From: a virus
Lineage: Duplodnaviria; Heunggongvirae; Uroviricota; Caudoviricetes
Reading direction: 5' to 3' (one strand)
Virus record (IMG/VR): IMGVR_UViG_2537561830_000004
Length of the DNA: 45,751 nt
The notes beneath the pieces are model-generated. The model ran no database searches, was not told where the DNA came from, and was given only the letters and a program-made list of their open reading frames with translations. Numbering within the stretch: position 1 is the stretch's first letter; every line of letters starts with the position of its first letter. Of the stretch, positions 7,228-45,751 are shown in pieces. The translations under genes were made by a program, and so were the position numbers.

Positions 7228-7458
7228 ATGAAAAAATCAGAAGTATTAGGCTATTTTGGCGGAGTTGTTAAAACAGCCGCAGCTCTTGGAACGTCAAAAA
7301 CCACAGTCAGCATGTGGGGGGAAGAGGTTCCGTGGAAATGGGCGTTGCTAATTCAGGCAGTCACTGCCGGGGCGCTCAAATATGAGTTACACATACCGAC
7401 GGTTGTCATTCCCGGTTCTGATCATAATCCGCCTTCTAACCAAGGGGGGGATTCATGA
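7228..7458 (+). CDS. cro: Cro-like HTH regulator (YdaS-like)
   Basis: GGAG RBS, ATG at 7228; 76 aa; HTH GGVVKTAAALGTSKTTVSMW; divergent from cI. Confidence 0.75.
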   Translation: MKKSEVLGYFGGVVKTAAALGTSKTTVSMWGEEVPWKWALLIQAVTAGALKYELHIPTVVIPGSDHNPPSNQGGDS

Positions 7459-7880
7459 AAATCAAGCATGAACACATCCGCATGGCGATGAATGCCTGGG
7501 CGCATCCGGACGGCGAAAAAGTACCGGCTGCGAAAATTACCAAAGCGTATTTCGAGCTGGGAATGACGTTCCCGGAACTGTATGACGACAGCCATCCGGA
7601 AGCCCTGGCTCGCAATACCCAGAAAATTTTCCGCTGGGTAGAGAAAGACACCCCTGATGCAGTTGAAAAAATTCAGGCGTTGTTACCAGCGATCGAAAAG
7701 GCAATGCCACCTTTGCTGGTGGCCAGAATGCGCAGCCACAGTTCAGCTTATTTTCGGGAGCTGGTGGAGACGCGGGAGCGACTGGTGAGAGACGCTGATG
7801 ATTTTGTCGCAGTGGCAATCGCCGGTTTCAATCAGATGAACCGTGGTGGCCCGGCAGGAAATGCTGTGGCAGTACATTGA
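7455..7880 (+). CDS. CII-analog regulator (YdaT-like, Rac/Qin-type immunity region)
   Basis: 141 aa starting MKIKHEHI, immediately after cro with start/stop overlap; family assignment from recalled similarity to E. coli YdaT. Confidence 0.6.
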   Translation: MKIKHEHIRMAMNAWAHPDGEKVPAAKITKAYFELGMTFPELYDDSHPEALARNTQKIFRWVEKDTPDAVEKIQALLPAIEKAMPPLLVARMRSHSSAYFRELVETRERLVRDADDFVAVAIAGFNQMNRGGPAGNAVAVH

Positions 7881-14206: not shown

Positions 14207-14563
14207 ATGACTGAACGCATAGAATTTGTTTTGCCTTACCCGCCAACGGTGAACACTTACTGGCGACGTCGTGGCAGCACATATTTTGTATCAAAAGCCG
14301 GTGAGCGTTATCGCCGTGATGTGGCGCTTATTGTTCGCCAGCAGCGGCTGAAATTAAACCTGTCCGGAAGGCTGGCGATAAAGATTATTGCAGAGCCACC
14401 GGATAAACGTCGTCGTGACCTGGACAATATCCTGAAAGCACCACTGGATGCGCTGACGCATGCCGGACTTCTCATAGACGACGAGCAGTTTGATGAAATC
14501 AATATTGTGCGCGGTCAGCGCGTTCCTGGGGGGGCGGCTGGGCGTGAAGATTTACAAAATTGA
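14207..14563 (+). CDS. rusA: RusA-family Holliday junction resolvase
   Basis: 118 aa; YPPTVNTYW ... RRRDLDNILKAPLDALT matches recalled RusA; ATGA overlap with upstream gene. Confidence 0.85.
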   Translation: MTERIEFVLPYPPTVNTYWRRRGSTYFVSKAGERYRRDVALIVRQQRLKLNLSGRLAIKIIAEPPDKRRRDLDNILKAPLDALTHAGLLIDDEQFDEINIVRGQRVPGGAAGREDLQN

Positions 14564-14569
14564 GAGTGA

Positions 14570-15124
14570 GTGATCGTAAATATGATATACCCGGAAATTA
14601 CAGGCAAAAGCGGCGAGCATTTACGTCTAAAAACGCTGGAAGCCGTCTGGATCCAGGGGAAATTACGGATGTGGGGGCGTTGGTCGTATATAGGTGGTGG
14701 CAAACCAGGAAATATGTTCAATCAGTTGCTGGCATCCAAAAAACTGACAAAAACCGCAATCAATGAAGCCCTGCGTAGAATCAGGGAGTCAGGGATTGAT
14801 AAACCAGAGCTGGAAGCATTCTTGCGAGAGATGATCGCTGGCAGACAGAAGAGCTGGTTGTCTCACTGTACTGATGCAGAGGCGTTACGCATTGATGGGG
14901 TGATAAGTAAAGCGCTTGCACGTTATCCTGGATTGATTGATATCCTGCGGCAAAGGTACGAAGGGCGGGGGATGAGTAAACGCAAAATGGCTGAATTGTT
15001 GAATGAGGTTCACCCTGAGTGGTGCTATGCAACATGCCGCAATCGTATAGATATGTGGCTGAGAATAGCTGAGTTTATTCTGTATCCACTGATGCGAGAT
15101 GCATTTTCTTTTACTGACGCTTAG
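14570..15124 (+). CDS. Q-family late antiterminator-like protein (canonical position upstream of late region)
   Basis: 184 aa; MWGRWS and CTDAEALRIDG ... RIDMWLRIAEFIL share pattern with the 10343..10690 protein; followed by promoter-like sequence and a terminator. Confidence 0.5.
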   Translation: MIVNMIYPEITGKSGEHLRLKTLEAVWIQGKLRMWGRWSYIGGGKPGNMFNQLLASKKLTKTAINEALRRIRESGIDKPELEAFLREMIAGRQKSWLSHCTDAEALRIDGVISKALARYPGLIDILRQRYEGRGMSKRKMAELLNEVHPEWCYATCRNRIDMWLRIAEFILYPLMRDAFSFTDA

Positions 15125-20488: not shown

Positions 20489-22588
20489 ATGGGTTTTTCA
20501 TCAGCCCGAAATTTGGGAAGGGACATATCGGCAGGATTTTCCCCACCACGTCGCATGCCGATTTCGGAGGCTGTTAAAAAATTCATGCGTGTTCCCAAGG
20601 GGGCTGGTAACTCGGTGCCATGGGATCCTGAACTGACACCCTACATCATTGAGCCCATGAACTGCCTGGCATCGCGTGAATACGATGCGGTGATTTTTGT
20701 TGGTCCTGCGCGAACAGGGAAGACCATTGGTCTGATCGATGGATGGATTGTCTATACCATCGTTTGCGATCCTTCGGACATGCTCGTTGTGCAGATGACC
20801 GAAGATAAGGCCCGCGAGCATTCTAAAAAGCGCCTCGACAGAACGTTCAGAAGCAGTGCGGCGGTAAAGAAAAGAATGAGTCCACGTCGTAACGACAATA
20901 ATGTCCATGATAAGACGTTCAGGGATGGCTCGTTCCTTAAAATTGGTTGGCCCTCGGTCAACATTATGTCGTCGTCGGATTACCGGTTTGTCGCCTTAAC
21001 CGATTACGACCGTTTTCCGGAGAATATCGACAGCGAGGGTGATGGTTTCTCCCTGGCCTCAAAACGTACCACCACATTTATGTCCGCCGGGATGACTCTG
21101 GTGGAGAGCTCGCCGGGACGTGACATCTGCGACAGCAAATGGCGACGTAAGTCGCCTCATGAAGCGCCACCGACGACTGGTATTCTTTCCCTTTACAATC
21201 GTGGTGACCGCCGCCGCTGGTACTGGCCATGTCCGCACTGCGGTGAATATTTTCAGCCAGCCATGGATGCCATGACCGGCTACCGTAATGAACCGGATCC
21301 CTTTAAAGCCAGTGAGGCGGCGTATCTACTTTGCCCGCACTGCAGCGGCATTATCACTGCGGAGAAAAAGCGTGAGCTCAATAGTGCAGGAGTCTGGTTG
21401 CGTGAAGGGCAGGTCATTGATCGTAACGGCAACGTTTCCGGTGAACCGCGCCGCTCCCGTATCGCCAGTTTCTGGATGGAAGGGCCAGCTGCTGCGTATC
21501 AGACCTGGGCGCAACTGGTTTACAAATTACTGACTGCAGAACAGGAGTATGAAGCGACAGGAAGCGAAGAAACACTCAGGGCGGTTATCAACACCGACTG
21601 GGGATTGCCTTATCTTCCTCGTGCCAGCATGGAGCAACGAAAAAGTGAATTGCTTGAGCAGCGGGCAGAGCCAGTTCCTTCCCGCAGTGTGCCGGATGGC
21701 GTTAATTTCCTTGTGGCGACAGTGGATGTGCAGGCGGGACGTCATCGCCGTTTTGTGGTTCAGGTAACGGGCTATGGCAGCCGTGGCGAACGCTGGATTA
21801 TTGATCGTTACAACATCACGCAGTCATTGCGCGGTGACAGCGACGGGGAGAGCCAGCGAATTGATCCGGCCAGCTATCCGGAAGACTGGGATGTCCTGCT
21901 GACGGATGTTTTTCATAAAAGCTGGCCGCTGGCCTCCGACCCTTCTCAACAAATGCGACTGATGGCAATGGCGGTGGACTCCGGCGGTGAAGACGGGGTC
22001 ACTGATAATGCCTATAAATTCTGGCGTCGTTGCCGTCGTGATGGCCTTGGTAAACGTATTTACCTGTTTAAGGGCGACAGCATCCGGCGCGCAAAACTGA
22101 TCACCCGTACATTCCCTGATAACACCGGACGAACGGGCCGACGGGCGCAGGCCGCAGGTGATGTGCCGCTCTGGCTTCTTCAGACGGATGCCCTGAAAGA
22201 CCGGGTGAATAACGCGTTATGGCGTGACTCGCCAGGTCCCGGCTATGTGCATTTCCCTGACTGGCTGGGGAGCTGGTTTTACGACGAACTGACGTATGAA
22301 GAGCGGAGCAGTGACGGGAAATGGAGTAAGCCGGGTCGCGGTGCCAACGAAGCTTTTGACCTGATGGTGTATGCCGAGGCTCTGGTCATTCTGCATGGAT
22401 ACGAAAAGATCCGCTGGCCGGATGCACCGGAGTGGGCGAGCCGGGAAACCTGGCTGGAGTGTGTCCCGGACAGTACCGAACCGTCACCCTCACCGGAACC
22501 GGTATCCACGCCTGTTAAAAAACAAAAACGGAAGAAAACAGTAACTGACGATGTTAACCCCTGGCTGACTTCCGGAGGATGGTTATGA
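20489..22588 (+). CDS. A: terminase large subunit (lambda gpA family)
   Basis: 699 aa; Walker A GPARTGKT; size and position as lambda A. Confidence 0.9.
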   Translation: MGFSSARNLGRDISAGFSPPRRMPISEAVKKFMRVPKGAGNSVPWDPELTPYIIEPMNCLASREYDAVIFVGPARTGKTIGLIDGWIVYTIVCDPSDMLVVQMTEDKAREHSKKRLDRTFRSSAAVKKRMSPRRNDNNVHDKTFRDGSFLKIGWPSVNIMSSSDYRFVALTDYDRFPENIDSEGDGFSLASKRTTTFMSAGMTLVESSPGRDICDSKWRRKSPHEAPPTTGILSLYNRGDRRRWYWPCPHCGEYFQPAMDAMTGYRNEPDPFKASEAAYLLCPHCSGIITAEKKRELNSAGVWLREGQVIDRNGNVSGEPRRSRIASFWMEGPAAAYQTWAQLVYKLLTAEQEYEATGSEETLRAVINTDWGLPYLPRASMEQRKSELLEQRAEPVPSRSVPDGVNFLVATVDVQAGRHRRFVVQVTGYGSRGERWIIDRYNITQSLRGDSDGESQRIDPASYPEDWDVLLTDVFHKSWPLASDPSQQMRLMAMAVDSGGEDGVTDNAYKFWRRCRRDGLGKRIYLFKGDSIRRAKLITRTFPDNTGRTGRRAQAAGDVPLWLLQTDALKDRVNNALWRDSPGPGYVHFPDWLGSWFYDELTYEERSSDGKWSKPGRGANEAFDLMVYAEALVILHGYEKIRWPDAPEWASRETWLECVPDSTEPSPSPEPVSTPVKKQKRKKTVTDDVNPWLTSGGWL

Positions 22589-22797: not shown

Positions 22798-24272
22798 TGG
22801 CAATTCTTGATGATGTGATTGGCGTTTTTTCACCAGGATGGAAAGCGGCAAGGCTGCGTTCCCGTGCGGTGATCCAGGCTTATGAGGCCGTAAAAACGAC
22901 GCGGACACACAAAGCCCGACGGGAGAACCGAACTGCCGACCAGTTAAGCCAGTACGGGGCCGTGTCGTTACGTGAGCAGGCCCGTTACCTTGATAACAAC
23001 CACGATCTGGTTATTGGTGTATTTGACAAGCTGGAAGAACGGGTGGTGGGGAAAAACGGGATTATTGTCGAGCCACATCCGGTATTACGCAATGGGGCCA
23101 TTGCCCGTGATCTGGCAGCGGAGATACGTACCCGATGGAGTGAATGGTCTGTCAGTCCGGAGGTCACCGGGCAGTTTACCCGTCCGATGCTGGAACGTCT
23201 GATGCTGCGTACCTGGCTGCGCGATGGTGAGGTGTTTGCCCAGATGGTTTCCGGGCGCATAAACAGCCTGACGCCTTCTGCCGGTGTTCATTTCTGGCTG
23301 GAGGCGCTCGAGCCGGACTTTATTCCCATGACCAGTGATGAGAGCAACAGGCTGAATCAGGGCGTGTTTGTTGATGACTGGGGGCGTCCCGAAAAATATC
23401 TGGTGTATAAAAGTCGTCCTGTATCCGGACGGCAGATGGAAACCAAAGAAGTGGATGCAGAGCGAATGCTGCATCTTAAATTTGTTCGCCGTCTGCACCA
23501 GATGCGCGGGACGTCTTTATTGTCCGGTGTGCTGATCCGCCTCAGCGCCCTGAAAGAGTATGAAGATTCTGAGCTGACTGCAGCAAGGGTCGCCGCTGCT
23601 CTGGGGATGTACATCCGCAAAGGCGACGGACAGAGCTATGAAACGGATGGTAATTACAGCAAGGAGAATGAACGCGAGCTTACCATTCAGCCAGGCATTA
23701 TTTACGACGATCTGAAACCCGGCGAAGAAATCGGAATGGTGAAGTCGGATCGCCCAAATCCTAACCTTGAAACTTTTCGTAATGCTCAGTTGCGTGCCGT
23801 GGCGGCGGGCAGTCGTCTGAGTTTTTCCAGTACAGCGCGCAACTATAACGGCACTTACAGCGCCCAGCGTCAGGAGCTGGTTGAATCCACTGATGGCTAC
23901 CTGATCCTGCAGGACTGGTTTATTGGTGCCGTCACCCGCCCGATGTATCGTGCCTGGCTGAAACAGGCTGTGGCATCCGGTGTTATCAGGCTACCCCGCG
24001 ATCTTGACCGTTCTTCACTGTATACCGCGGTGTATTCCGGACCGGTGATGCCGTGGATTGATCCTGTTAAGGAGGCTGAGGCCTGGAAAATCCAGATTCG
24101 TGGTGGAGCGGCGACAGAATCAGACTGGGTACGTGCAGGTGGTCGTAATCCGGATGATGTCAAACGTCGGCGCAAGGCCGAAATTGATGAAAACCGCAAG
24201 CTGGATCTGGTATTTGATACCGATCCGGCCAGTGATAAAGGAGGCAGCAGTGCCGCAACGAAACGACAGTAG
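22797..24272 (+). CDS. B: portal protein (lambda gpB family)
   Basis: about 491 aa from the ATG at 22797; position after terminase and W. Confidence 0.85.
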   Translation: MAILDDVIGVFSPGWKAARLRSRAVIQAYEAVKTTRTHKARRENRTADQLSQYGAVSLREQARYLDNNHDLVIGVFDKLEERVVGKNGIIVEPHPVLRNGAIARDLAAEIRTRWSEWSVSPEVTGQFTRPMLERLMLRTWLRDGEVFAQMVSGRINSLTPSAGVHFWLEALEPDFIPMTSDESNRLNQGVFVDDWGRPEKYLVYKSRPVSGRQMETKEVDAERMLHLKFVRRLHQMRGTSLLSGVLIRLSALKEYEDSELTAARVAAALGMYIRKGDGQSYETDGNYSKENERELTIQPGIIYDDLKPGEEIGMVKSDRPNPNLETFRNAQLRAVAAGSRLSFSSTARNYNGTYSAQRQELVESTDGYLILQDWFIGAVTRPMYRAWLKQAVASGVIRLPRDLDRSSLYTAVYSGPVMPWIDPVKEAEAWKIQIRGGAATESDWVRAGGRNPDDVKRRRKAEIDENRKLDLVFDTDPASDKGGSSAATKRQ

Positions 24273-26277
24273 CCGCAGTACACCGACGACCAGTCCGAAG
24301 AATAATTCCTGGTTCAGGATGCAGGCTGGTCACCAGAGTGACGCGGATATTTATATTTATGACGAGATTGGTTTCTGGGGGGTTACAGCGAAGCAGTTTA
24401 TCAGTGATCTGAATGCACTGGGCGATATCACCCACATTAATCTCCATATCAATTCACCGGGTGGCGATGTCTTTGAAGGCATCGCCATTTTTAATGCGCT
24501 GAAAACACATGGTGCGTCCATTACCGTTTATGTCGACGGTGTGGCGGCATCAATGGCGTCGGTCATTGCGATGGTGGGAAACCCGGTCATTATGCCGGAA
24601 AACACCTTCATGATGATTCATAAACCATTTGGCTTTACGGGCGGTGATGCGGAGGACATGCGCACCTATGCCGACCTGCTCGATAAAGTTGAGGCGGTTC
24701 TGTTACCCGCTTATGCACAGAAAACCGGGAAAACCACCGATGAAATTGCTGCCATGCTGGCGGATGAGACCTGGATGTCCGGTGCCGAATGTCTGGCACA
24801 TGGATTTGCTGATCAGGTGACGCCAGCCGTTAAGGCAATGGCATGTATTCAGTCAAAACGTACAGAGGAATTTAAAAAGATGCCGGAATCCATTCGAAAC
24901 ATGATTACTCCGCCACGCAACAGTGCTCCACGCGTACAGGATAATGAACCTGCAGCTTCCCGGACGCCAGTGCAGGCAGCAGCACCCGTGGTGGATGAAA
25001 ACAGTATCCGTGCGCAGGTACTGGCAGAGCAAAAAGCGCGTGTAAACGGTATTAATGATCTGTTTGCCATGTTTGGCGGGCGTTATCAGACGCTGCAGGC
25101 TCAGTGTCTTGCCGATCCTGAATGTTCGCTGGAGCAGGCCCGCGAAAAGCTGTTGAACGAGATGGGGCGCGAGTCCACGCCATCCAATAAAAATACCCCG
25201 GCTCATATTTATGCCGGTAACGGTAATTTTGTGGGGGACGGGATCCGCCAGGCGCTGATGGCGCGTGCCGGATTTGAAAAAACCGAACGTGATAATGTCT
25301 ACAACGGGATGACCCTGCGTGAATATGCCCGTATGTCACTGACTGAACGGGGTATTGGGGTTTCCAGTTATAACCCGATGCAGATGGTCGGTGCGGCGTT
25401 CACACACAGTACGTCTGACTTCGGTAATATTCTGCTGGATGTTGCGAACAAAGCCATTCTGCAGGGCTGGGAAGATGCCCCTGAAACCTATGAACAGTGG
25501 ACGCGGAAAGGTCAGTTGTCTGATTTTAAAATTGCCCATCGTGTGGGTATGGGGGGCTTCAGTGCTCTGCGTCAGGTGCGTGAAGGGGCGGAATATAAAT
25601 ACGTCACCACCGGAGATAAACAGGCCACTATTGCACTGGCGACCTATGGCGAGCTGTTCAGTATCACCCGTCAGGCCATTATCAATGATGATCTGAATAT
25701 GCTGACCGATGTCCCGATGAAACTGGGCCGTGCGGCGAAATCCACTATTGCCGATCTGGTTTATGCCATTCTGACGTCTAACCCGAAAATCTCCACAGAT
25801 AATGTAAGTCTGTTCGATAAAGCGAAACATGCAAACGTACTGGAGAGCGCTGCAATGGACGTGGCATCGCTGGATAAAGCCCGCCAGTTGATGCGCGTTC
25901 AGAAAGAGGGGGAGCGTCATCTGAATATTCGTCCTGCGTTCGTACTGGTACCGACGGCGATGGAGTCTGTTGCTAACCAGGTCATTCGCTCCTCAAGTGT
26001 CAAGGGGGCTGACATTAACGCCGGTATTATTAACCCGGTGAAAGATTTTGCGACCGTTATTGCAGAGCCTCGTCTTGATGATAACAGCCTGACCACCTTC
26101 TACCTGGCTGCGTCAAAAGGCTCCGATACGATTGAAGTGGCTTATCTCAACGGTGTGGATACGCCATATATTGATCAGATGGAGGGCTTCAGTGTGGATG
26201 GCGTGACAACGAAAGTGCGTATTGACGCCGGTGTCGCGCCAGTTGATCACCGCGGTCTGGTGAAATGTACGGCGTAA
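24250..26277 (+). CDS. prohead protease (ClpP/S14-like) fused to major capsid protein
   Basis: about 675 aa from GTG at 24250 (AAAGGAGG RBS); N-terminal INSPGGDV...ASMAS ClpP-like motifs, capsid-like C-terminal region. Confidence 0.75.
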   Translation: MPQRNDSSRSTPTTSPKNNSWFRMQAGHQSDADIYIYDEIGFWGVTAKQFISDLNALGDITHINLHINSPGGDVFEGIAIFNALKTHGASITVYVDGVAASMASVIAMVGNPVIMPENTFMMIHKPFGFTGGDAEDMRTYADLLDKVEAVLLPAYAQKTGKTTDEIAAMLADETWMSGAECLAHGFADQVTPAVKAMACIQSKRTEEFKKMPESIRNMITPPRNSAPRVQDNEPAASRTPVQAAAPVVDENSIRAQVLAEQKARVNGINDLFAMFGGRYQTLQAQCLADPECSLEQAREKLLNEMGRESTPSNKNTPAHIYAGNGNFVGDGIRQALMARAGFEKTERDNVYNGMTLREYARMSLTERGIGVSSYNPMQMVGAAFTHSTSDFGNILLDVANKAILQGWEDAPETYEQWTRKGQLSDFKIAHRVGMGGFSALRQVREGAEYKYVTTGDKQATIALATYGELFSITRQAIINDDLNMLTDVPMKLGRAAKSTIADLVYAILTSNPKISTDNVSLFDKAKHANVLESAAMDVASLDKARQLMRVQKEGERHLNIRPAFVLVPTAMESVANQVIRSSSVKGADINAGIINPVKDFATVIAEPRLDDNSLTTFYLAASKGSDTIEVAYLNGVDTPYIDQMEGFSVDGVTTKVRIDAGVAPVDHRGLVKCTA

Positions 26278-33564: not shown

Positions 33565-34308
33565 ATGACACAGACAGAATCAGCGATTCTGGCGCACGCC
33601 CGGCGATGTGCGCCAGCGGAGTCGTGCGGCTTCGTGGTAAGCACGCCGGAGGGGGAAAGATATTTCCCCTGCGTGAATATCTCCGGTGAGCCGGAGGCGT
33701 ATTTCCGTATGTCGCCGGAAGACTGGCTGCGGGCAGAAATGCAGGGTGAGATTGTGGCGCTGGTCCACAGCCACCCCGGTGGTCTGCCCTGGCTGAGTGA
33801 GGCTGACCGGCGGCTGCAGGTGCAGAGTGATTTGCCGTGGTGGCTGGTCTGCCGGGGTGAGATTCATAAATTCCGCTGTGTGCCGCATCTCACCGGGCGG
33901 CGCTTTGAGCACGGGGTGACGGACTGTTACACGCTGTTCCGGGATGCTTACCATCTGGCGGGGATTGAGATGCCGGATTTTCATCGCGGGGATGACTGGT
34001 GGCGTAACGGTCAGAATCTCTATCTGGATAATCTGGAGGCCACAGGGCTGTATCAGGTGCCGTTGTCAGCGGCGCAGCCGGGCGATGTGCTGCTGTGCTG
34101 TTTTGGTTCATCGGTGCCGAATCATGCCGCTATTTACTGCGGCGACGGCGAGCTGCTGCACCATATTCCTGAACAACTGAGCAAACGAGAGAGGTATACC
34201 GACAAATGGCAGCGACGCACACACTCCCTCTGGCGTCACCGGGCATGGCACGCATCTGCCTTTACGGGGATTTGCAACGATTTGGCCGCCGCATCGACCT
34301 TCGTGTGA
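33565..34308 (+). CDS. K: tail assembly protein K (MPN/JAB plus NlpC/P60-like)
   Basis: 247 aa; HSHP JAB-type motif and Cys-containing C-terminal domain. Confidence 0.8.
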   Translation: MTQTESAILAHARRCAPAESCGFVVSTPEGERYFPCVNISGEPEAYFRMSPEDWLRAEMQGEIVALVHSHPGGLPWLSEADRRLQVQSDLPWWLVCRGEIHKFRCVPHLTGRRFEHGVTDCYTLFRDAYHLAGIEMPDFHRGDDWWRNGQNLYLDNLEATGLYQVPLSAAQPGDVLLCCFGSSVPNHAAIYCGDGELLHHIPEQLSKRERYTDKWQRRTHSLWRHRAWHASAFTGICNDLAAASTFV

Positions 34309-34913: not shown

Positions 34914-37900
34914 ATGGGTAAAGGCAGCAGTAAGGGGCATACCCCGCGCGAAGCGAAGGATAACCTGAAATCCACGCAGCTGCTGAGTGTGATCGATGCC
35001 ATCAGCGAAGGGCCGATTGAAGGTCCGGTGGATGGATTAAAAAGCGTGCTGCTGAACAGTACACCGGTGCTGGACAGTGAGGGGAATACCAACATCTCCG
35101 GTGTCACGGTGGTGTTCCGGGCAGGTGAGCAGGAGCAGACACCGCCGGAGGGATTTGAATCCTCCGGTTCCGAGACGGTGCTGGGTACGGAAGTGAAATA
35201 CGACACGCCGATCACCCGGACCATCACGTCTGCAAACATCGACCGTCTGCGCTTTACCTTCGGTGTGCAGGCACTGGTGGAAACCACCTCAAAGGGGGAC
35301 CGGAATCCGTCGGAAGTCCGCCTGCTGGTTCAGATCCAGCGTAATGGTGGCTGGGTGACGGAAAAAGACATCACCATTAAGGGCAAAACCACCTCGCAGT
35401 ATCTGGCCTCGGTGGTGGTGGGTAACCTGCCGCCGCGCCCGTTCAATATACGGATGCGCAGGATGACGCCGGACAGCACCACAGACCAGCTGCAGAACAA
35501 AACGCTCTGGTCGTCATACACCGAAATCATCGATGTGAAACAGTGCTACCCGAACACGGCACTGGTCGGCGTGCAGGTGGATTCGGAGCAGTTCGGCAGC
35601 CAGCAGGTGAGCCGTAATTATCATCTGCGCGGGCGCATTCTGCAGGTGCCGTCGAACTATAACCCGCAGACGCGGCAATACAGCGGTATCTGGGACGGAA
35701 CGTTTAAGCCAGCATACAGCAACAACATGGCCTGGTGTCTGTGGGATATGCTGACCCATCCGCGCTACGGCATGGGGAAACGTCTTGGTGCGGCGGATGT
35801 GGACAAATGGGCGCTGTATGTCATCGGCCAGCATTGCGATCAGTCGGTGCCGGACGGTTTTGGCGGCACGGAGCCGCGCATCACCTGTAATGCGTACCTG
35901 ACCACACAGCGCAAGGCGTGGGATGTGCTCAGTGATTTCTGCTCTGCGATGCGCTGTATGCCGGTATGGAACGGGCAGACGCTGACGTTCGTGCAGGACC
36001 GACCGTCGGATAAGGTGTGGACCTATAACCGCAGTAATGTGGTGATGCCGGATGATGGCGCGCCGTTCCGCTACAGCTTCAGCGCCCTGAAGGACCGCCA
36101 TAATGCCGTTGAGGTGAACTGGATTGACCCGAATAACGGCTGGGAGACGGCGACAGAGCTTGTGGAGGACACGCAGGCCATTGCCCGTTACGGTCGTAAC
36201 GTCACGAAGATGGATGCTTTTGGCTGTACCAGCCGGGGGCAGGCACACCGCGCCGGGCTGTGGCTGATTAAAACAGAACTGCTGGAAACGCAGACCGTGG
36301 ACTTCAGCGTGGGTGCCGAAGGGCTTCGCCATGTACCGGGCGATGTCATTGAAATCTGCGATGATGACTATGCCGGTATCCGCACCGGCGGGCGCGTGCT
36401 GGCGGTAAACAGCCAGACCCGGACGCTGACGCTCGACCGTGAAATCACGCTGCCATCTTCCGGCACCACGCTGATAAGCCTGGTTGACGGGCAGGGGAGT
36501 CCGGTCAGCGTGGAGGTCCAGTCCATCACCGACGGCGTGAAGGTGAAAGTGAGCCGGGTTCCTGACGGCGTTGCCGAGTACAGCGTGTGGGGGCTGAAGC
36601 TGCCGACGCTGCGCCAGCGCCTGTTCCGCTGTGTGAGTATCCGTGAGAACGACGACGGTACGTATGCCATCACTGCAGTGCAGCATGTACCGGAGAAAGA
36701 AGCCATCGTGGATAACGGGGCGCACTTTGACGGTAACCAGAGCGGCACGGTGAATGGTGTCACGCCGCCAGCAGTGCAGCATCTGACCGCCGAAGTCACC
36801 GCAGACAGCGGGGAATACCAGGTGCTGGTCCGCTGGGACACGCCGAAGGTGGTGAAGGGGGTGAGCTTTATGCTTCGCCTGACCGTGGCAGCGGATGACG
36901 GCAGTGAGCGGCTGGTCAGCACGGCCCGGACGACGGAAACCACTTACCGCTTCACACAACTGGCTCTGGGGAACTACAGGCTGACAGTCCGGGCAGTAAA
37001 TGCATGGGGACAGCAGGGCGATCCGGCGTCGGTATCGTTCCGGATTGCCGCACCGGCAGCGCCGTCGCGGATTGAGCTGACGCCGGGCTATTTTCAGATA
37101 ACCGCCACGCCGCATCTTGCGGTTTATGATCCGACGGTACAGTTTGAGTTCTGGTTCTCGGAAAAGCGGATTGCGGATATCAGGCAGGTTGAAACCACAG
37201 CCCGCTATCTTGGTACGGCGCTGTACTGGATAGCCGCCAGTATCAATATCAAACCGGGCCATGATTATTATTTTTACGTTCGCAGTGTGAACACCGTTGG
37301 CAAATCGGCATTCGTGGAGGCTGTCGGTCGGGCGAGCGATGATGCGGAAGGTTACCTGGATTTTTTCAAAGGAGAAATCGGGAAAACACATCTGGCCCAG
37401 GAGTTGTGGACGCAGATTGATAACGGTCAGCTTGCGCCTGACCTGGCTGAAATCAGGACATCCATTACGGATGTCAGCAATGAAATCACGCAGACCGTCA
37501 ATAAGAAACTGGAAGACCAGAGTGCGGCAATTCAGCAGATACAGAAGGTTCAGGTTGATACAAATAATAACCTGAACAGCATGTGGGCTGTGAAGCTGCA
37601 GCAGATGCAGGACGGACGCCTTTATATCGCGGGTATTGGTGCCGGTATTGAGAACACCCCTGACGGCATGCAGAGTCAGGTGCTGCTGGCGGCAGACAGG
37701 ATTGCGATGATTAATCCTGCGAATGGCAACACAAAGCCGATGTTTGTTGGGCAGGGCGATCAGATATTCATGAACGACGTGTTCCTGAAACGCCTGACGG
37801 CTCCCACCATTACCAGCGGCGGTAATCCTCCGGTATTTTCCCTGACACCGAACGGGCGGCTGACGGCGAAAAATGCCGATATCAGCGGTAACGTGAATGC

Positions 37901-38393
37901 GAACTCCGGGACGCTCAACAACGTCACGATTAACGAGAACTGTCGGGTTCTGGGAAAACTGTCCGCCAACCAGATTGAAGGCGATCTCGTTAAAACAGTG
38001 GGCAAAGCTTTCCCCCGGGACTCCCGTGCACCGGAACGGTGGCCATCAGGGACCATCACCGTCAGGGTTTATGACGATCAGCCGTTTGACCGGCAGATTG
38101 TTATTCCGGCGGTGGCATTCAGCGGCGCTAAACATGAGAGGGAGAATAACGATATTTACTCCTCATGCCGCCTGATAGTGAAGAAAAATGGTGCTGAAAT
38201 TTATAACCGTACCGCGCTGGATAATACGCTGATTTACAGTGGTGTTATTGATATGCCAGCTGGTCACGGCCACATGACGCTGGAGTTTTCGGTGTCAGCA
38301 TGGCTGGTAAATGACTGGTATCCCACAGCAAGTATCAGCGATTTGCTGGTTGTGGTGATGAAGAAAGCCACCGCAGGCATCAGTATCAGCTGA
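34914..38393 (+). CDS. J: host specificity / central tail fibre protein J
   Basis: 1159 aa; GGAG RBS; size and order as lambda J. Confidence 0.9.
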
Positions 38394-38460: not shown

Positions 38461-39060
38461 ATGCGTAAAGTTTGTGCAGCCATTTTGTCCGCAGCCATCT
38501 GTCTGGCCGTATCCGGTGCGCCTGCATGGGCGTCTGAGCAGCAGGCCACACTGAGCGCAGGGTATCTTCATGCCCGTACGAACGCTCCCGGCAGCGATAA
38601 TCTGAACGGGATTAACGTGAAATACCGTTATGAGTTTACGGACGCGCTGGGGCTGATTACGTCCTTCAGTTATGCCAATGCTGAGGATGAGCAAAAAACG
38701 CGCTACAGCGATACCCGCTGGCATGAAGATTCCGTGCGTAACCGCTGGTTCAGCGTGATGGCGGGGCCGTCTGTACGCGTGAATGAATGGTTCAGCGCGT
38801 ATGCGATGGTGGGTGTGGCTTACAGCCGTGTGTCGACTTTCTCCGGGGATTATCTCCGCGTAACTGACAACAAGGGGAAAACGCACGATGTGCTGACCGG
38901 AAGTGATGACGGTCGCCACAGCAACATGTCTCTGGCGTGGGGGGCTGGCGTGCAGTTTAACCCGACCGAATCCGTGGCCATTGATGTCGCTTATGAAGGC
39001 TCCGGCAGTGGCGACTGGCGCACTGACGGTTTCATCGTGGGTGTCGGTTATAAGTTCTGA
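38461..39060 (+). CDS. lom: Lom/Ail-family outer membrane beta-barrel protein
   Basis: 199 aa; signal peptide ending AWA; C-terminal Phe; position after J as in lambda. Confidence 0.85.
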   Translation: MRKVCAAILSAAICLAVSGAPAWASEQQATLSAGYLHARTNAPGSDNLNGINVKYRYEFTDALGLITSFSYANAEDEQKTRYSDTRWHEDSVRNRWFSVMAGPSVRVNEWFSAYAMVGVAYSRVSTFSGDYLRVTDNKGKTHDVLTGSDDGRHSNMSLAWGAGVQFNPTESVAIDVAYEGSGSGDWRTDGFIVGVGYKF

Positions 39061-39086
39061 TTAGCCAGGTAACACAGTGTTATGAC

Positions 39087-39114
39087 AGCCCGCCGGTTCT
39101 GGCGGGCTTTTTTG
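39087..39114 (+). terminator. intrinsic terminator after lom
   Basis: GCCCGCC-GGTTCT-GGCGGGC followed by TTTTT. Confidence 0.55.
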
Positions 39115-39118
39115 TGGG

Positions 39119-41602
39119 GTGAATATGGCAGTAAAGATTTCAGGTGTACTGAAAGACGGTGCAGGTAAACCGGTACAGAACTGTACAATCCAGCTGAAAG
39201 CAAAACGTAACAGCACCACGGTGGTGGCGAACACGGTGGCCTCAGAAAATCCGGATGAAGCCGGGCGTTACAGCATGGACGTTGAGTACGGTCAGTACAG
39301 CGTTATTCTGTTGGTGGAAGGCTTCCCGCCATCGCATGCCGGGACCATCACCGTGTATGAAGACTCACAACCGGGTACGCTGAATGATTTTCTCGGTGCC
39401 ATGACGGAGGATGATGTCCGTCCGGAGGCACTGCGCCGCTTTGAACTGATGGTGGAAGAGGTGGCGCGTAACGCGTCCGCAGTGGCACAGAACACGGCAG
39501 CCGCGAAGAAGTCAGCCAGCGATGCCGGCACATCAGCCCGTGAGGCGGCAACCCGTGCAACTGATGCTGCAGGCTCAGCACGTGCAGCCAGCACGTCAGC
39601 CGGACAGGCCGCGTCGTCGGCTCAGTCAGCGTCTTCCAGCGCAGGAACAGCATCAACAAAGGCCACTGAAGCATCAAAAAGTGCTGCCGCCGCAGAGTCC
39701 TCAAAAAGCGCGGCAGCTACCAGTGCCAGTGCCGCGAAAACGTCAGAAACGAATGCGGCAGCGTCACAAAAATCTGCAGCCACTTCTGCATCCGCCGCGA
39801 CCACAAAGGCGTCAGAAGCTGCCACCTCGGCACGGGGTGCGGCGGCCTCAAAAGAGGCAGCGAAATCATCAGAAACGAATGCATCATCAAGTGCCAGTAA
39901 TGCAGCTTCCTCGGCAACGGCGGCAGGAAATTCCGCGAAGGCGGCAAAAACGTCCGAGACGAACGCTAAGTCTTCTGAAACAGCAGCGGGACAGAGCGCC
40001 TCAGCTGCGGCAGGTTCAAAAACAGCGGCTGCGTCGTCTGCCAGTGCCGCGTCAACAAGTGCCGGGCAGGCCTCAGCCAGTGCCACCGCCGCCGGAAAAT
40101 CGGCAGAAAGCGCCGCATCATCCGCTTCAACAGCCACAACGAAGGCGGGCAAAGCCACTGAGCAAGCCACTGCAGCAGCGAGGTCTTCTTCTGCAGCAAA
40201 AACCTCTGAAACAAATGCAAAGACTTCAGCAGACAATGCTGCTTCCTCTAAGGCGGCAGCCGCATCGTCAGCCAGTTCTGCGGCGTCATCGGCATCATCT
40301 GCGTCTGCTTCAAAAGATGAGGCGACCAGACAGGCGTCAGCAGCGAAGGGCAGCGCCACGACGGCATCCACGAAAGCAACAGAGGCGGCAGGCAGTGCGA
40401 CGGCAGCATCTCAGAGCAAAACTGCTGCTGAATCCGCTGCGACCCGTGCGGAAGCTGCTGCTGATCGTGCTGAAGAGATTGCCGGTGCAGTTGCGATGGA
40501 AGACGCAAGCCTTACAACTAAAGGTGTTGTGAAACTTAGCAGTGCTGTTGATAGCACCAGTGAATCGCTGGCCGCAACGCCAAAAGCAGTTAAAGCAGCC
40601 AATGACAATGCGAATAGCAGGGTGCCATCTAACCGAAAAGTTAACGGTAAAGCACTGACTGCGGATATCACTTTAACCGCCGCGCATGTGGCTGCTTTTG
40701 CCAGAAGGGCAACGGATACGTATGCCGATGCGGATGGTGGCGTTCCCTGGAATGCCGAATCAGGCGCTTACAATGTCACCCGCTCTGGCGACAGCTATAT
40801 TCTGGTTAACTTCTATACCGGAGTCGGAAGTTGCCGGACCCTGCAGATGAAGGCGCATTACAGAAATGGTGGTCTGTTCTACCGTTCTTCAAGAGACGGT
40901 TATGGTTTTGAAAGTGGTTGGGAGCAGGTTTACACGACTGGATTTAGACCTCAGCCGGCTGATATAAACGCACCAACCGCTGCCGCCGGATGGTTAAATA
41001 GTGGTAACGGAACAGCATTTACGACTGCTCAGTTTATAACGTGGCTAAATAATCAGGGTGCATTTTCAAACAAATATTGGATTGCACGGTGCTCATGGGT
41101 TTACGCCAACAATAATTATATAGACGACACTGGTTGCGGTAGGATCGATCTATCTGGTTCCGTGATTGAGGTGTTTAGTAATAAGGCAACAAGCAATTAC
41201 ACTATTCGTGTTACAACGACAACAACATCGGGTCATGGTGGTGTTAATAATGCGGAATTTATTTATGTGTACAATGGAAGTGGTTATGCGCCAGGCTGGC
41301 GTCGTTCTTATAACACCAGAAACAAACCAACAGCTTCTGATGTAGGAGCATTACCGCTTTCAGGTGGCACATTATCTGGGGGGGTAACGTCTTCTGGTGA
41401 GATCGTTTCAAAATATGCAAATGGTTTCCGCATTGCTTACGGTAACTATGGGTTCTTTATCCGTAATGACGGCGGCAGCACATATTTCATGCTAACAGCA
41501 TCAGGAGATACGTTAGGTTCATGGAACAGTTTGCGACCGATTACAATTAATAATACCAGCGGTGTTGTGTCCATTGGTAATGAACTGCGCCCCAAAGGTT
41601 AG
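39119..41602 (+). CDS. stf: side tail fibre (Stf) N-terminal portion, ORF interrupted by an IS insertion
   Basis: 827 aa ORF with Ala/Ser-rich repeat region (KTSETNA units); reading frame runs into the IS left inverted repeat and stops at 41602. Confidence 0.75.
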   Translation: MNMAVKISGVLKDGAGKPVQNCTIQLKAKRNSTTVVANTVASENPDEAGRYSMDVEYGQYSVILLVEGFPPSHAGTITVYEDSQPGTLNDFLGAMTEDDVRPEALRRFELMVEEVARNASAVAQNTAAAKKSASDAGTSAREAATRATDAAGSARAASTSAGQAASSAQSASSSAGTASTKATEASKSAAAAESSKSAAATSASAAKTSETNAAASQKSAATSASAATTKASEAATSARGAAASKEAAKSSETNASSSASNAASSATAAGNSAKAAKTSETNAKSSETAAGQSASAAAGSKTAAASSASAASTSAGQASASATAAGKSAESAASSASTATTKAGKATEQATAAARSSSAAKTSETNAKTSADNAASSKAAAASSASSAASSASSASASKDEATRQASAAKGSATTASTKATEAAGSATAASQSKTAAESAATRAEAAADRAEEIAGAVAMEDASLTTKGVVKLSSAVDSTSESLAATPKAVKAANDNANSRVPSNRKVNGKALTADITLTAAHVAAFARRATDTYADADGGVPWNAESGAYNVTRSGDSYILVNFYTGVGSCRTLQMKAHYRNGGLFYRSSRDGYGFESGWEQVYTTGFRPQPADINAPTAAAGWLNSGNGTAFTTAQFITWLNNQGAFSNKYWIARCSWVYANNNYIDDTGCGRIDLSGSVIEVFSNKATSNYTIRVTTTTTSGHGGVNNAEFIYVYNGSGYAPGWRRSYNTRNKPTASDVGALPLSGGTLSGGVTSSGEIVSKYANGFRIAYGNYGFFIRNDGGSTYFMLTASGDTLGSWNSLRPITINNTSGVVSIGNELRPKG
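39700..40270. repeat. imperfect tandem coding repeats within stf
   Basis: recurring GC(G/A)(G/A)C(G/A)AAA(A/T)C(G/A)TC(A/C)GA(A/G)AC(G/A)AA(T/C)GC units at about 39733, 39862, 39937, 40195. Confidence 0.45.
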
Positions 41603-41627
41603 ACACCAGACCAAAAACTGAGGATGC

Positions 41628-42134
41628 ATGGAAAAGTTTTCATTGGAGTTCAAAAAGGTAGTATCAGAAAAGTACCTGGAGGGAGAGTTGAGTCTGAAAT
41701 CTGTAGCAAGGATGTACGGTATCAGTCCCTGCACAGTAAGAAAATGGGCTTATGCCTATCGGGAACATGGGATAAGCATACTTACGGGTAAAAAAGGACG
41801 CTATTCTGCTGAGTTAAAACTCACAGTAGTAAAAGAAGTCGTGGATGACTGTTTTTCTGTTCGTGAAGTAGCGGTAAAACACGGAATACCAGCCTTTGGT
41901 ACTGTATGCAACTGGCTTGAAAAATATAGAAAATATGGCGAAGATGCTTTCATTCGAAAAAATAAAAAGAGTATTCCTGTGCCGGATAAAAGCGCCATTT
42001 CAGCACCACCACTACCAACATTAACCAAAGATGAGAGAGAAGAACTTGAACAACTCAGGGTCGAGAATGCCTACTTAAAAAAGCTGAAAGCCTTGGTTCA
42101 GCAGAAAACATGCTCAACGTTCAGGAAAAAGTGA
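41628..42134 (+). CDS. IS3-family transposase OrfA (HTH)
   Basis: 168 aa with HTH segments; ends with LKKLKAL leucine-zipper region containing the A AAA AAG slippery site. Confidence 0.8.
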   Translation: MEKFSLEFKKVVSEKYLEGELSLKSVARMYGISPCTVRKWAYAYREHGISILTGKKGRYSAELKLTVVKEVVDDCFSVREVAVKHGIPAFGTVCNWLEKYRKYGEDAFIRKNKKSIPVPDKSAISAPPLPTLTKDEREELEQLRVENAYLKKLKALVQQKTCSTFRKK

Positions 42135-42973
42135 GCATTGTGAATGAACTAAGGCAGGAATGGCCATTGTCCCGATTGTTAATTGTTTCCGGGCTGCCCC
42201 GGAGTACATTTTACTATCATGTCAGACGGCTTGCTGCTCCTGACCGGTATCAGTCTGCCAGAGCGCTTGTGCTGAAAATTTATCACCAGCACAAAGGCCG
42301 CTATGGTTACAGACGCATCAGGCTGGCATGTCGTAACGAGGGGGTTTTACTTAATGGTAAAACCGTCAGAAAACTGATGAAGGAACTGGGTATTAGCAGC
42401 CTGATCCGCGTTAAAAAATACCGTTCATATAAAGGAGAACAAGGACGAATTTGCGATAATCTCCTGAAACGCAATTTTGATGCAAAACGCCCCAACGAGA
42501 AGTGGGTTACAGATGTCACTGAATTTAAAGTGAATGGCAAGAAGCTGTATTTGTCGCCCGTCATGGATCTTTATAATGGAGAAATAATTTCCTATAACCT
42601 CGCCACTCGCCCTCAACCTTCAATGGTGCAGACTATGCTTACGGATGCGCTGAAACAGCTGTCGAAAGATGAACACCCCATACTGCACAGCGATCAAGGT
42701 TGGCAATATCAGATGTCCCGGTGGCAACGATGGTTAAAGGATAGCGGTATAGTCCAGAGTATGTCTCGCCGGGGAAATTGTCTTGATAATGCAGTTATAG
42801 AGAGCTTTTTTGGAACATTGAAATCAGAATGTTATTACCTCAATGAATATAAAAATGTGGAGGACTTAAAGCGAGACATCATTGATTACATAAACTATTA
42901 TAATCAATTGAGGATAAAGGAAAAACTTGGCGGTCTTAGCCCGGTACAATATCGATTGAGTCAGGCTGCATAA
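42110..42973 (+). CDS. IS3-family transposase OrfB (DDE catalytic domain), in -1 frame relative to OrfA
   Basis: 287 aa in the -1 frame, overlapping OrfA by about 25 nt; DDE-type integrase-like sequence. Confidence 0.8.
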
Positions 42974-43002
42974 GTTGTCCAAGATCTGGGGCGCAGTTCA
43001 GT

Positions 43003-44121
43003 AATGGACTAAATGTTACTGGTGGCGTTAATGGTAGTTTGAACGGTAATGCTTCAACAGCTACGAAGTTGCAAACAGCGAGAAACATCAATGGTGTTAA
43101 GTTTGATGGCTCAGGCGATATCAACATTAATACATTGGTATCTCGTGGCCGAGTTACGGCGTTAAGCGGCTCTACTCAAGGCACTGCTGGCATTCAAATG
43201 TACGAGGCGTACAACAATAGCTACCCGACCATGTATGGCAACGTATTGCACATGAAAGGTGCGAGTGCTGCTGGTGAGGGCGAGTTGCTTATTGGCTGGA
43301 GTGGTACGAGCGGTGCACATGCGCCAGTTTTCATTCGCTCACGAAGAGATAACACAGATGCGGCATGGTCGCCGTGGGCGCAGCTTTACACCTCGGCTCA
43401 TCCTCCTGCAGAGTTTTATCCAGTCGGTGCACCAATCCCGTGGCCATCAGATACCGTTCCGTTTGGTTATGCCCTGATGCATGGGCAGACTTTTGACAAA
43501 TCTGCATACCCGAAACTTGCAGCCGCTTATCCGTCAGGCGTGATCCCTGATATGCGTGGCTGGACGATTAAGGGCAAACCTGCCAGTGGTCGCGCCGTAT
43601 TGTCTCAGGAACAGGACGGCATTAAATCGCACACCCACAGCGCCAGCGCATCCAGTACGGATTTGGGGACGAAAACCACATCGTCGTTTGATTACGGCAC
43701 TAAATCCACGAATAACACCGGGGCGCATACGCACAGTCTGAGTGGCTCTACGGGGTCTGCCGGTGTTCATACTCATGGTAATGGTATTCGTTGGCCAGGA
43801 GGCGGCGGTTCTGCGTTAGCATTTTATGATGGCGGTGGGTTCACTTATGTCCAGAATTCACAGTATCAAGTAAGCCCGGAGACTTCTTCCTATAGATCGT
43901 ATTATCAACGTATTCAGACACAGTCAGCAGGTGCTCATACCCACTCGCTGTCTGGTACTGCAGCAAGTTCTGGCGCACATGCACATACTGTAGGTATTGG
44001 TGCGCATACGCACTCCGTTGCGATTGGTTCACATGGACACACCATCACCGTTAACGCTGCGGGTAACGCGGAAAACACCGTCAAAAACATCGCATTTAAC
44101 TATATTGTGAGGCTTGCATAA
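43003..44121 (+). CDS. stf: side tail fibre (Stf) C-terminal portion, separated from the N-terminal part by the IS
   Basis: in frame with the stf N-terminal part once the IS and one GTAA copy are removed; His-rich HTHS/HxH repeats typical of Stf/gp37 C-termini; internal ATG at 43039. Confidence 0.7.
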
Positions 44122-44705
44122 TGGCATTCAGAATGAGTGAACAAGCACGGACCATAAAAATTTATAATCTGCTGGCCGGAACTAATGAATTTATTGGTGA
44201 AGGTGACGCATATATTCCGCCTCATACAGGTCTGCCAGCAAACAGTACCGATATTGCACCACCAGATATTCCTGCTGGCTTTGTGGCTGTTTTCAACAGT
44301 GATGAGGCATCGTGGCATCTCGTTGAAGACCATCGGGGTAAAACGGTTTATGACGTAGCTTCCGGCGACGCGTTATTTATTTCTGAACTCGGCTTATTAC
44401 CGGAAAATGTTACCTGGTTATCGCCGGAAGGGGAGTTTCAGAAGTGGAACGGCACAGCCTGGGTGAAGGATACGGAAGCAGAAAAACTGTTCCGGATCCG
44501 GGAGGCGGAAGAAACAAAAAACAACCTGATGCAGGTAGCCAGTGAGCATATTGCGCCGCTTCAGGATGCTGCAGATCTGGAAATTGCAACGGAGGAAGAA
44601 ACCTCATTGCTGGAAGCCTGGAAAAAGTATCGGGTGTTGCTGAACCGTGTTGATACATCAACTGCACCTGATATTGAGTGGCCTACGAACCCTGTCAGGG
44701 AGTAA
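44121..44705 (+). CDS. tfa: tail fibre assembly protein Tfa
   Basis: 194 aa; ATGGCATTC start overlapping stf stop; conserved C-terminal region repeated again at 45592-45751. Confidence 0.8.
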
Positions 44706-44719
44706 TCATTGGGATTATG

Positions 44720-44768
44720 CCGCAGCACGTCTTAAGCAAGAACGTGCTGCGGTTGGATGCTATTTTTT
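44720..44768 (+). terminator. hairpin terminator between convergent tfa and methyltransferase genes
   Basis: CCGCAGCACG (44720-44729) pairs perfectly with CGTGCTGCGG (44743-44752); T-rich tract follows. Confidence 0.45.
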
Positions 44769-45428
44769 CCCTGAAGCGGAAAACATTACTACAGTACCTT
44801 GAACCTTGGTTTTAACATTCTCGAAATGCTCTGAGAGTATATGTGTTAAGCCTTCTTCGGAATCTTTTGTGTTTGAAAAGATGCCTTTCTGATTGTAAAT
44901 GCGCATCAGTTTTTGACCGAAGCTATTGTGCACAACTCCATCGCCAAGAATTGTGGCTCCGTATAGAGTTCCATCGTCAGTTAAGGCCTGCGCCGCATTG
45001 CGTATTACACAGCTTTTTGTAGATATATTTCCAGGCAGGCAGTGAAGAAGGTAAAACATGGAAATGGAATCAAATTGACCATGTAACGCCGCGGGATAAG
45101 GTTCAAAAACATCATGGCTAATTTTATGTTTAATTTTTGATTCCCCAGCCCTTGTAGATGCCGCGTTCAGGCTAGCTTCGTTCAAATCCATTAAAGATAT
45201 CAGACTACTCTCAGGTACGTGAGTAAGGTAAAACCCAGTTCCAACACCAATATCCAGATGGTTGTTACCTAAATGTTCCAGAAAGTGTGGAAGAAGGTGT
45301 TCCTTTGTAGGACATCCCCATGCAAGCCGATTTGATACTCCCAAAACCCACCAGTCATAAAGCTTTAGGGTAAGTGGTGTGTAAATTTTAGCCCCATCAT
45401 CTGTGTTTTTTTTCATTGATTTCACCAT
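44760..45428 (-). CDS. class I SAM-dependent methyltransferase (cargo gene between tfa repeats)
   Basis: 222 aa; motif I LDIGVGTG; about 40% GC; opposite strand to the tail genes. Confidence 0.65.
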   Translation of the reverse strand: MVKSMKKNTDDGAKIYTPLTLKLYDWWVLGVSNRLAWGCPTKEHLLPHFLEHLGNNHLDIGVGTGFYLTHVPESSLISLMDLNEASLNAASTRAGESKIKHKISHDVFEPYPAALHGQFDSISMFYLLHCLPGNISTKSCVIRNAAQALTDDGTLYGATILGDGVVHNSFGQKLMRIYNQKGIFSNTKDSEEGLTHILSEHFENVKTKVQGTVVMFSASGKK

Positions 45429-45484: not shown

Positions 45485-45751
45485 ATGCTGCCGCAGCATA
45501 GCGATATTGAAATAGCCTGGTATGCTTCGATACAGCAGGAGCCGAATGGCTGGAAGACCGTCACCACACAGTTCTACATCCAGGAATTCAGTGAGTATAT
45601 TGCGCCACTGCAGGATGCTGTAGATCTGGAAATCGCAACGGAGGAAGAAAGATCGTTGCTGGAGGCATGGAATAAATATCGGGTATTGTTGAATCGTGTT
45701 GATACATCAACTGCACCTGATATTGAGTGGCCGACTTCACCTGCAGAGTAA
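45485..45751 (+). CDS. small protein carrying a Tfa C-terminal domain (tfa fragment or variant)
   Basis: 88 aa; C-terminal 55 aa about 90% identical to the Tfa C-terminus ([43 protein letters not shown]). Confidence 0.5.

Follow-up and report, generated by a model that had tools for sequence, protein, structure and literature searches.

Insertion sequences (ISs) of the IS3 family move by a copy-out, paste-in route through a circular intermediate in which the two ends abut. Within this family, IS1397 and ISKpn1 are specific for palindromic units (PUs, or REP sequences), and their transposases appear to be responsible for this target specificity (PMC1525189). In Nissle 1917, the IS1397 copy between yaeF and nlpE lies in the loop of a PU, GCCGGATGCGGCGTG[AAC]/IS/[AAC]GCCTTATCCGGC (duplicated target bases in square brackets), and in strain 06-00048 the fumC-fumB terminator hairpin carries ISEcB1 in its loop, CCGCCC[CGAA]/IS/[CGAA]GGGCGG. 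Here we describe an IS3-family element in the virus record IMGVR_UViG_2537561830_000004, a stretch of 45,751 nucleotides that is called the window below. The whole window is one lambdoid prophage, and the element interrupts its side tail fibre gene, stf. Very probably, a full-length and apparently active copy of an IS that is widespread in E. coli transposed into stf at a chosen palindrome, ending the function of the fibre.

Read directly from the sequence, the IS proper occupies 41581-43000 and is 1420 bp long (Table 1). An earlier note, made on this DNA from its letters, gave the same length but a span of 41577-43004, which takes in both copies of the flanking GTAA. The terminal inverted repeats that it described as matching over 14 bp agree at 14 of 14 positions on exact comparison (left, TGAACTGCGCCCCA; right, TGGGGCGCAGTTCA; TGAAC...GTTCA), and the likeness extends imperfectly beyond them, to approximately 21 of 27 positions. 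Both copies of the 4-bp duplication were read at the edges of the IS, as had been noted: the left junction is ...GTGTCCATTG GTAA / TGAACTGCGCCCCA... and the right junction is ...TGGGGCGCAGTTCA / GTAA TGGAC.... The two overlapping genes, orfA and orfB, lie in frames that differ by -1, and the slippery heptamer A_AAA_AAG at which the earlier note had joined them is in register with the orfA codons (TTA AAA AAG), so that a -1 slip would yield an open OrfAB fusion of 448 residues. A candidate stem-loop with modest support (minimum free energy -26 kcal/mol, z = -2.0) is predicted where frameshift stimulators usually sit, shortly downstream of the slippery site.

By its sequence features, the element is assigned unambiguously to the IS3 family, as had been proposed. 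The helix-turn-helix OrfA matched Pfam HTH_28 and HTH_Tnp_1, and OrfB matched HTH_21, rve (93.3 bits) and rve_2; in addition, the NCBIfam model transpos_IS3 gave OrfB 342.7 bits, where the cut-off is 160. The candidate DDE residues of OrfB are the D in TDVTEF (motif from residue 134), the D in HSDQG (from residue 193) and an E (motif from residue 229) that is followed seven residues later by a K, which we take together to be the IS3 signature. The 0/-1 arrangement of the genes with an A6G-type slippery site, the TG...CA ends, a length within the approximately 1.2-1.55 kb of the family and a duplication within its range of 3-5 bp all agree with this assignment; other copies of the IS are flanked by target duplications of 3-4 bp. 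The transposase frames are intact, and copies that are 100% identical carry the PGAP label of an IS3 transposase with programmed frameshift.

A natural empty site was found in E. coli NCCP 13717, whose prophage (NZ_CP115984.1, 2992000-3041500) is colinear with the whole window at 99.93-100% identity and is inserted within the potABCD operon, where complete potB and potC genes flank it. Only two structural differences separate the two prophages: an ISCro1 in the terminase gene of NCCP 13717 and the IS3-family element in stf of the window. The stf site of NCCP 13717 is uninterrupted, ...GTGTCCATTGGTAATGGAC..., and equals the window without the IS and one GTAA; the empty-site sequence, TTGTGTCCATTGGTAATGGACTAAATG, contains a single GTAA. 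The match across this site extends over 1577 bp, compared with 1581 bp for the summed window flanks, and the whole stf there is shorter by exactly the length of the IS and 4 bp more. An uninterrupted homologue has the two flanks directly joined, which is the point on which the earlier note had staked its reading. When the IS and one GTAA were removed from the window, a single open reading frame (ORF) resulted, with 1192 codons from GTG 39119 or 1190 residues from ATG 39125 (MAVKISGV...), in agreement with the approximately 1190 residues expected. Chance could hardly produce this set of features.

The data support a recent insertion that is restricted to one lineage. Of 5,426 complete E. coli genomes, 322 had the IS, with chromosomal and plasmid copies and up to 9 places per genome, and none had the stf::IS allele. 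Copies that are 100% identical occur on the chromosome and a plasmid of strain 600468 and on the chromosome of TW10573; copies elsewhere are 99.9-100% identical, and the identity stops exactly at the IS boundaries, 41581 and 43000. The exact truncated Stf of 825 residues was found on three draft assemblies only (GCA_000356545.1, GCA_000356805.2 and GCA_000356765.2). In the first of these, contig AQEP01000006.1 (568 kb) spans both junctions and, in the 8.5 kb that were retrieved, matches the window at 100% identity. Because the duplication is perfect, the IS is identical to other copies and the allele is narrowly spread, the insertion is probably recent, as the earlier note had also concluded; the stf flanks, moreover, are 99.9-100% identical to the empty-site prophage. 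The allele marks a shallow E. coli lineage and could serve as a clonal marker.

An old insertion, either stably inherited or selected because it silences the fibre or expresses the distal fragment from an outward promoter borne by the IS, is improbable, although it fares best among the alternatives. Three assemblies share the allele, a TTG-initiated ORF of 360 residues remains downstream of the IS, and the ends of IS3-family elements can supply promoter elements. However, the allele is absent from the complete genomes although the prophage with an intact stf exists at 99.9-100% identity, and the IS does not differ from copies elsewhere. A selected distal fragment would, in addition, have no N-terminal phage_tail_N attachment domain and could not join the virion.

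To characterize the target, the flanks of the same IS were surveyed at 10 loci outside the window, giving 11 loci with stf. The earlier note did not mention the palindromic target. In the usual layout, a left flank GTGTCCA(T/C) and a right flank (A/G)TGGACAC enclose the IS, with a duplication of 3-4 bp on each side of it. The spacer between cvrA and dadX reads TAGTGTCCATTC[TTT]/IS/[TTT]TAATGGACACTA, the leader upstream of tnpA in ISCro1-like IS66 elements reads TAATGTCCATCA[TTTT]/IS/[TTTT]TAATGGACACTA, and ydcZ reads AAGTGTCCACCAG[CGCA]/IS/[CGCA]CGCTGGACACCAG. At least one arm was likewise found at each of the sites in a DcrB-like gene, an integrase gene, a plasmid helix-turn-helix gene, yejO, rhsD and a second IS66-like variant. 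The stf target, GTGTCCATT-GGT-AATGGAC, has a perfect left arm, 8 nt from the IS tip, and the same 9-mer, GTGTCCATT, also flanks the IS at the cvrA-dadX, ISCro1-like leader and integrase sites. GGACA was located 7 or 8 nt from an IS tip in 10 of the 10 loci outside the window (chance approximately 0.004 per locus), and the consensus of 17 aligned half-sites was A-T-A-A-T-G-G-A-C-A-C-T-A-T. None of the 11 loci had a PU as target.

At three sites (cvrA-dadX, the ISCro1-like leader and ydcZ), the IS was found in both orientations at the identical nucleotide, which is what a symmetric target predicts. Two orientations at one site could arise by independent symmetric targeting or by inversion in situ, and the former is simpler. 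The palindrome is already present in the empty sites of stf, of the ISCro1 leader in NCCP 13717 and of cvrA-dadX, which is contiguous in 4,235 genomes; the arms are therefore target sequence and not part of the IS. The possibility that the GTGTCCATT/AATGGAC arms belong to a longer mobile element was ruled out, since they are contiguous in the empty sites. The motif GTCCA-N5-13-TGGAC occurs once in the restored 44.3-kb prophage, at the insertion site, where shuffled sequences predict 0.4 occurrences, and twice in the 49.5-kb NCCP 13717 stretch, in stf and in the ISCro1 leader, both of which are documented targets of this IS. A fixed position, insertion in either orientation and a pre-existing palindrome place the element among ISs that target palindrome centres. 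Together, these observations on flanking sequence make target specificity, as opposed to insertion at random, well supported.

The ISCro1-type IS66 leader (25917-25936 of the NCCP 13717 stretch) is a recurrent landing pad for the IS in both orientations. Such IS-in-IS arrangements involve several IS66 variants and were seen on numerous plasmids and chromosomes of E. coli, among them a further contig of GCA_000356545.1.

Several points weigh against the view that the IS selected this palindrome and thereby disabled the fibre. The palindrome in stf is poorer than those of the best targets: its spacer is 9 nt compared with 11-13 nt elsewhere, and its right arm reads TGGACT rather than TGGACAC and lies 5 nt from the IS tip rather than 7-8 nt. 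Because an 18-nt stretch is common to the cvrA-dadX and ISCro1-like leader sites, these two are not fully independent sequence samples, and several of the surveyed IS copies come from draft assemblies. As for the fibre, PGAP calls cro and rusA frameshifted in the NCCP 13717 prophage (41041-41284 and 33939-34305 of the stretch), and the same calls apply to the window at approximately 7228-7471 and 14207-14573 because the alignment there is ungapped. The prophage may therefore already be defective, making any phenotypic consequence of the insertion moot.

The imperfect stf palindrome with its short spacer, together with the general view that IS3-family elements are only weakly site-selective, would fit an insertion that struck at random and met the palindrome by coincidence. 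This reading is very unlikely given the constant position of GGACA at the other loci and the three sites where both orientations share one insertion nucleotide. In addition, the IS occupies the sole such palindrome in 44.3 kb, for which a random hit has a chance of roughly 17/44,000. Least credible is that the junction is an assembly artefact with a repeated IS misplaced in stf: the allele was seen only in drafts and in a sibling draft the same left junction leads to a cvrA-side flank, which shows that repeats do cause path errors in these data, but the 4-bp duplication is perfect on both sides, the flanks rejoin exactly to the natural empty site, a 568-kb contig crosses both junctions without a mismatch to the window in the part retrieved, and the site fits the target motif.

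We thus favour transposition into a chosen palindrome and propose the following pathway. OrfAB, produced by the -1 frameshift at A_AAA_AAG, would circularize a copy of the IS, and the circle would integrate with staggered cuts 4 bp apart, giving rise to the GTAA duplication. This IS inserts 7-8 nt from an (A/G)TGGACA(C) arm, as a rule in the middle of GTGTCCA-N(9-13)-TGGACAC. By analogy with IS1397 and ISKpn1, the transposase itself may recognize the GTGTCCA/TGGACAC arms and place the staggered cuts centrally. The insertion ends Stf after residue 819 with the addition of six residues encoded by the IS, and the separation of the C-terminal 371 residues would leave no functional side fibre. The event is in itself an ordinary IS insertion; the element is of a known kind and already abundant in public genomes, the allele is present in public assemblies, and the earlier reading of the locus is correct.

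Copies of the IS with mismatched flanks bear on the suggestion of the earlier note that the element could drive rearrangements. In the complete genome VTB97420v (NZ_CP178690.1), an rhsD/IS/ISCro1-leader arrangement has unrelated flanks and no duplication; the plasmid copy in CP099011.1 has flanks from two target loci and no duplication; and a cvrA/IS/ISCro1-leader arrangement with hybrid flanks and no duplication was found in a draft. These hybrid flanks are consistent with recombination between IS copies. In GCA_000356765.2, contig AQAA01000228.1 (1-5542) is 100% identical to window positions 39061-43000; beyond these, in place of the distal stf, it carries the cvrA-side flank of the cvrA-dadX site. 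This joint may stem either from recombination between two IS copies in direct orientation, with deletion of what lay between them, or from the assembler passing through the repeat. Judged by gene orientations, the stf copy and a cvrA-dadX copy would be direct repeats, recombination between which would delete the interval, perhaps roughly 55 kb going by K-12 gene positions. The suggestion is plausible in view of the hybrid-flank copies elsewhere and of the stf/cvrA joint.

The insertion splits a protein of the lambda Stf type. J (34914-38393), lom (38461-39060), stf and tfa follow in this order, and the restored protein has an N-terminal prophage tail fibre domain (phage_tail_N, residues 1-134, 239.6 bits), Gp34_trimer at 709-808 and Collar at 960-1007 in its C-terminal receptor-binding part. 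The Phage_fiber repeat gave one sub-threshold hit at residues 1055-1068 (E = 0.0047, 17.4 bits against a cut-off of 20), and the C-terminal stretch is rich in histidine motifs of the GAHTHS type. In the window, translation of stf would run into the IS, add ELRPKG and stop at TAG 41600-41602, giving 825 residues in total. The distal 371 codons contain no in-frame ATG, and their only in-frame start is TTG 43039. The IS thereby separates the N-terminal attachment and shaft part of Stf from the C-terminal Collar and receptor-binding part, and from this uncoupling we infer that the side fibre is lost. Lambda reportedly tolerates loss of stf, the side fibre being dispensable for plaque formation, as Hendrix and Duda are said to have found in 1992. 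In laboratory lambda PaPa, a frameshift reportedly splits stf into orf-401 and orf-314, likewise an N-terminal and a C-terminal ORF; the lesion there is a 1-bp deletion, whereas here it is a 1424-bp IS insertion, and the present Stf is longer (1190 residues). The insertion may be seen as routine prophage decay that removed the side tail fibre from an otherwise well-conserved lambdoid prophage, probably at the cost of fast adsorption or accessory host range.

A low-complexity stretch of approximately 350 residues of Stf (window approximately 39450-40560) is rich in Ala, Ser and Thr and yields long spurious ORFs, for example 39522-40532 on the plus strand and 39622-40371 on the minus strand. Downstream of tfa, a gene for a class I S-adenosylmethionine-dependent methyltransferase lies on the opposite strand (44760-45428, minus). 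A second tail fibre assembly ORF (45485-45751, plus) runs to the end of the window; PGAP treats it as N-terminally incomplete, its C-terminal part closely resembles that of tfa, and it appears to be left over from an ancestral or alternative fibre module. In the NCCP 13717 prophage, the integrase gene is on the potC side, and the IS66-like ISCro1 interrupts the large terminase gene (23294-25991 of the stretch), which is intact in the window near 22512-22520. The two copies of one prophage thus carry different ISs, in two different late genes.

Table 1. Features at the interrupted stf locus (window coordinates)
Feature	Position	Strand	Basis or remarks
stf 5′ part, native codons 1-819	39125..41580	+	Pfam phage_tail_N, Gp34_trimer
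Left palindrome arm, GTGTCCATT	41567..41575	.	GTCCATT within it pairs with AATGGAC 43003-43009
GTAA, left copy of target-site duplication	41577..41580	.	Single GTAA in empty site
IS, IS3 family (IS150-like), 1420 bp	41581..43000	+	Boundaries, domains, identical copies elsewhere
Left terminal inverted repeat, TGAACTGCGCCCCA	41581..41594	+	Imperfect repeat to ~41607, includes TTAGACAC
orfA, 168 residues, helix-turn-helix DNA-binding part of transposase	41628..42134	+	Pfam HTH_28, HTH_Tnp_1
A_AAA_AAG, -1 programmed frameshift heptamer	42077..42083	+	In register; PGAP note on identical copies
Predicted stem-loop, 6 nt past slippery site	42090..42155	+	11-bp outer stem, 42090-42100 with 42145-42155
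orfB, 287 residues, catalytic part, -1 frame	42110..42973	+	Pfam HTH_21, rve, rve_2; NCBIfam transpos_IS3
Right terminal inverted repeat, TGGGGCGCAGTTCA on plus strand	42987..43000	-	
GTAA, right copy of target-site duplication	43001..43004	.	
Right palindrome arm, AATGGAC	43003..43009	.	
stf 3′ part, codons 820-1190 and stop	43005..44121	+	Pfam Collar
tfa, tail fibre assembly chaperone	44121..44705	+	Directly downstream of stf; PGAP label in colinear NCCP 13717 prophage

The IS was also found on 233 plasmid records, mainly from Escherichia and with few from Salmonella, Enterobacter and others, and was not found in the phage collection searched. No specific name for it appeared in the PGAP labels (all "IS3 family transposase, programmed frameshift"), the cluster names or the literature searched. 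Its exact 27-nt left end had no match among one genome per species. A degenerate version of the end pattern retrieved distant IS150-like elements in many phyla, which are not copies of the 1420-bp IS. The end TGAACTGCGCCCCA-N4-TTRGACA is conserved in IS elements of Bacillota, Bacteroidota and Pseudomonadota, with examples in Lysinibacillus, Streptococcus, Bacteroidales, Pseudomonas and Pantoea. In the last two genera, the copies with this end adjoin REP-like sequence (...CGCGGG....CCCGCTCCTACA...), which suggests that palindrome targeting may be common in the IS150-like lineage.

The closest named relatives are ISEcB1 (OrfB 57%, OrfA 42% identity), IS150 (OrfB 57%, OrfA 29%) and IS1397 (OrfAB 44%). 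IS150 and ISEcB1 resemble the present IS in their 0/-1 orfA/orfB arrangement, the PGAP label of a programmed frameshift, a length of approximately 1.4 kb and TG...CA ends. The end sequence TGAACTGC(A/G)CCCCA-N4-TT(G/A)GACA is common to ISEcB1, IS1397 and the present IS; in particular, the ISEcB1 tip, TGAACTGCACCCCA-N4-TTGGACA, is nearly identical to TGAACTGCGCCCCA-N4-TTAGACA / TTGGACA here, whereas the IS150 end differs (TGTACTGCACCCA...TTGGACG). OrfA is only 29-42% identical to those of IS150 and ISEcB1 and the DNA likeness is confined to short stretches. PGAP assigns the present IS to neither of the two, and the target motif differs.

The ends of the present IS also resemble its targets. The subterminal repeat reads TTAGACACCAG at the left end and TTGGACAA at the right end, and three target arms read TGGACACC(A/G). 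From this likeness we speculate that the domain which binds the IS ends could also read the target. Against such end mimicry, the motif lies approximately 20 nt from the tip in the IS ends compared with 7-8 nt from the cut in the targets. We offer only tentatively, as a proposal that may well be wrong, that this is an unnamed IS150-like element that targets palindrome centres, that GTGTCCA-N9-13-TGGACAC is a target undescribed for the IS3 family, that its arms mimic TTAGACAC(CAG) and that the DNA-binding domain of its transposase reads both ends and target. If so, it would explain the repeated invasion of ISCro1-type IS66 elements, the cvrA-dadX spacer, ydcZ and stf.

What the present locus adds is a target rule that is like that of IS1397 and ISKpn1 with a different palindrome. 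If a 7-bp arm is indeed read and the cut is made 7-8 nt away, insertion sites of this IS would be predictable from sequence, the recurrent presence of an IS3-type element inside ISCro1-like elements on E. coli plasmids would be explained, and a tractable system for target choice in the IS3 family would stand beside IS1397 and ISKpn1. Like those two elements, the present IS inserts at the centre of a specific short palindrome; it shares with IS1397 a very similar inverted-repeat tip, and the Nissle copy of IS1397 is flanked by a 3-bp duplication (AAC). In contrast, OrfAB of IS1397 is only 44% identical to that of the present IS, whose target is GTGTCCA...TGGACAC and not PU/REP. This target is present at few loci (the ISCro1-like leader, cvrA-dadX, ydcZ and stf) rather than as a high-copy genomic repeat such as the PUs, and its arms resemble the element's own subterminal motif, TTAGACACCAG, which is not so for IS1397 and PUs.

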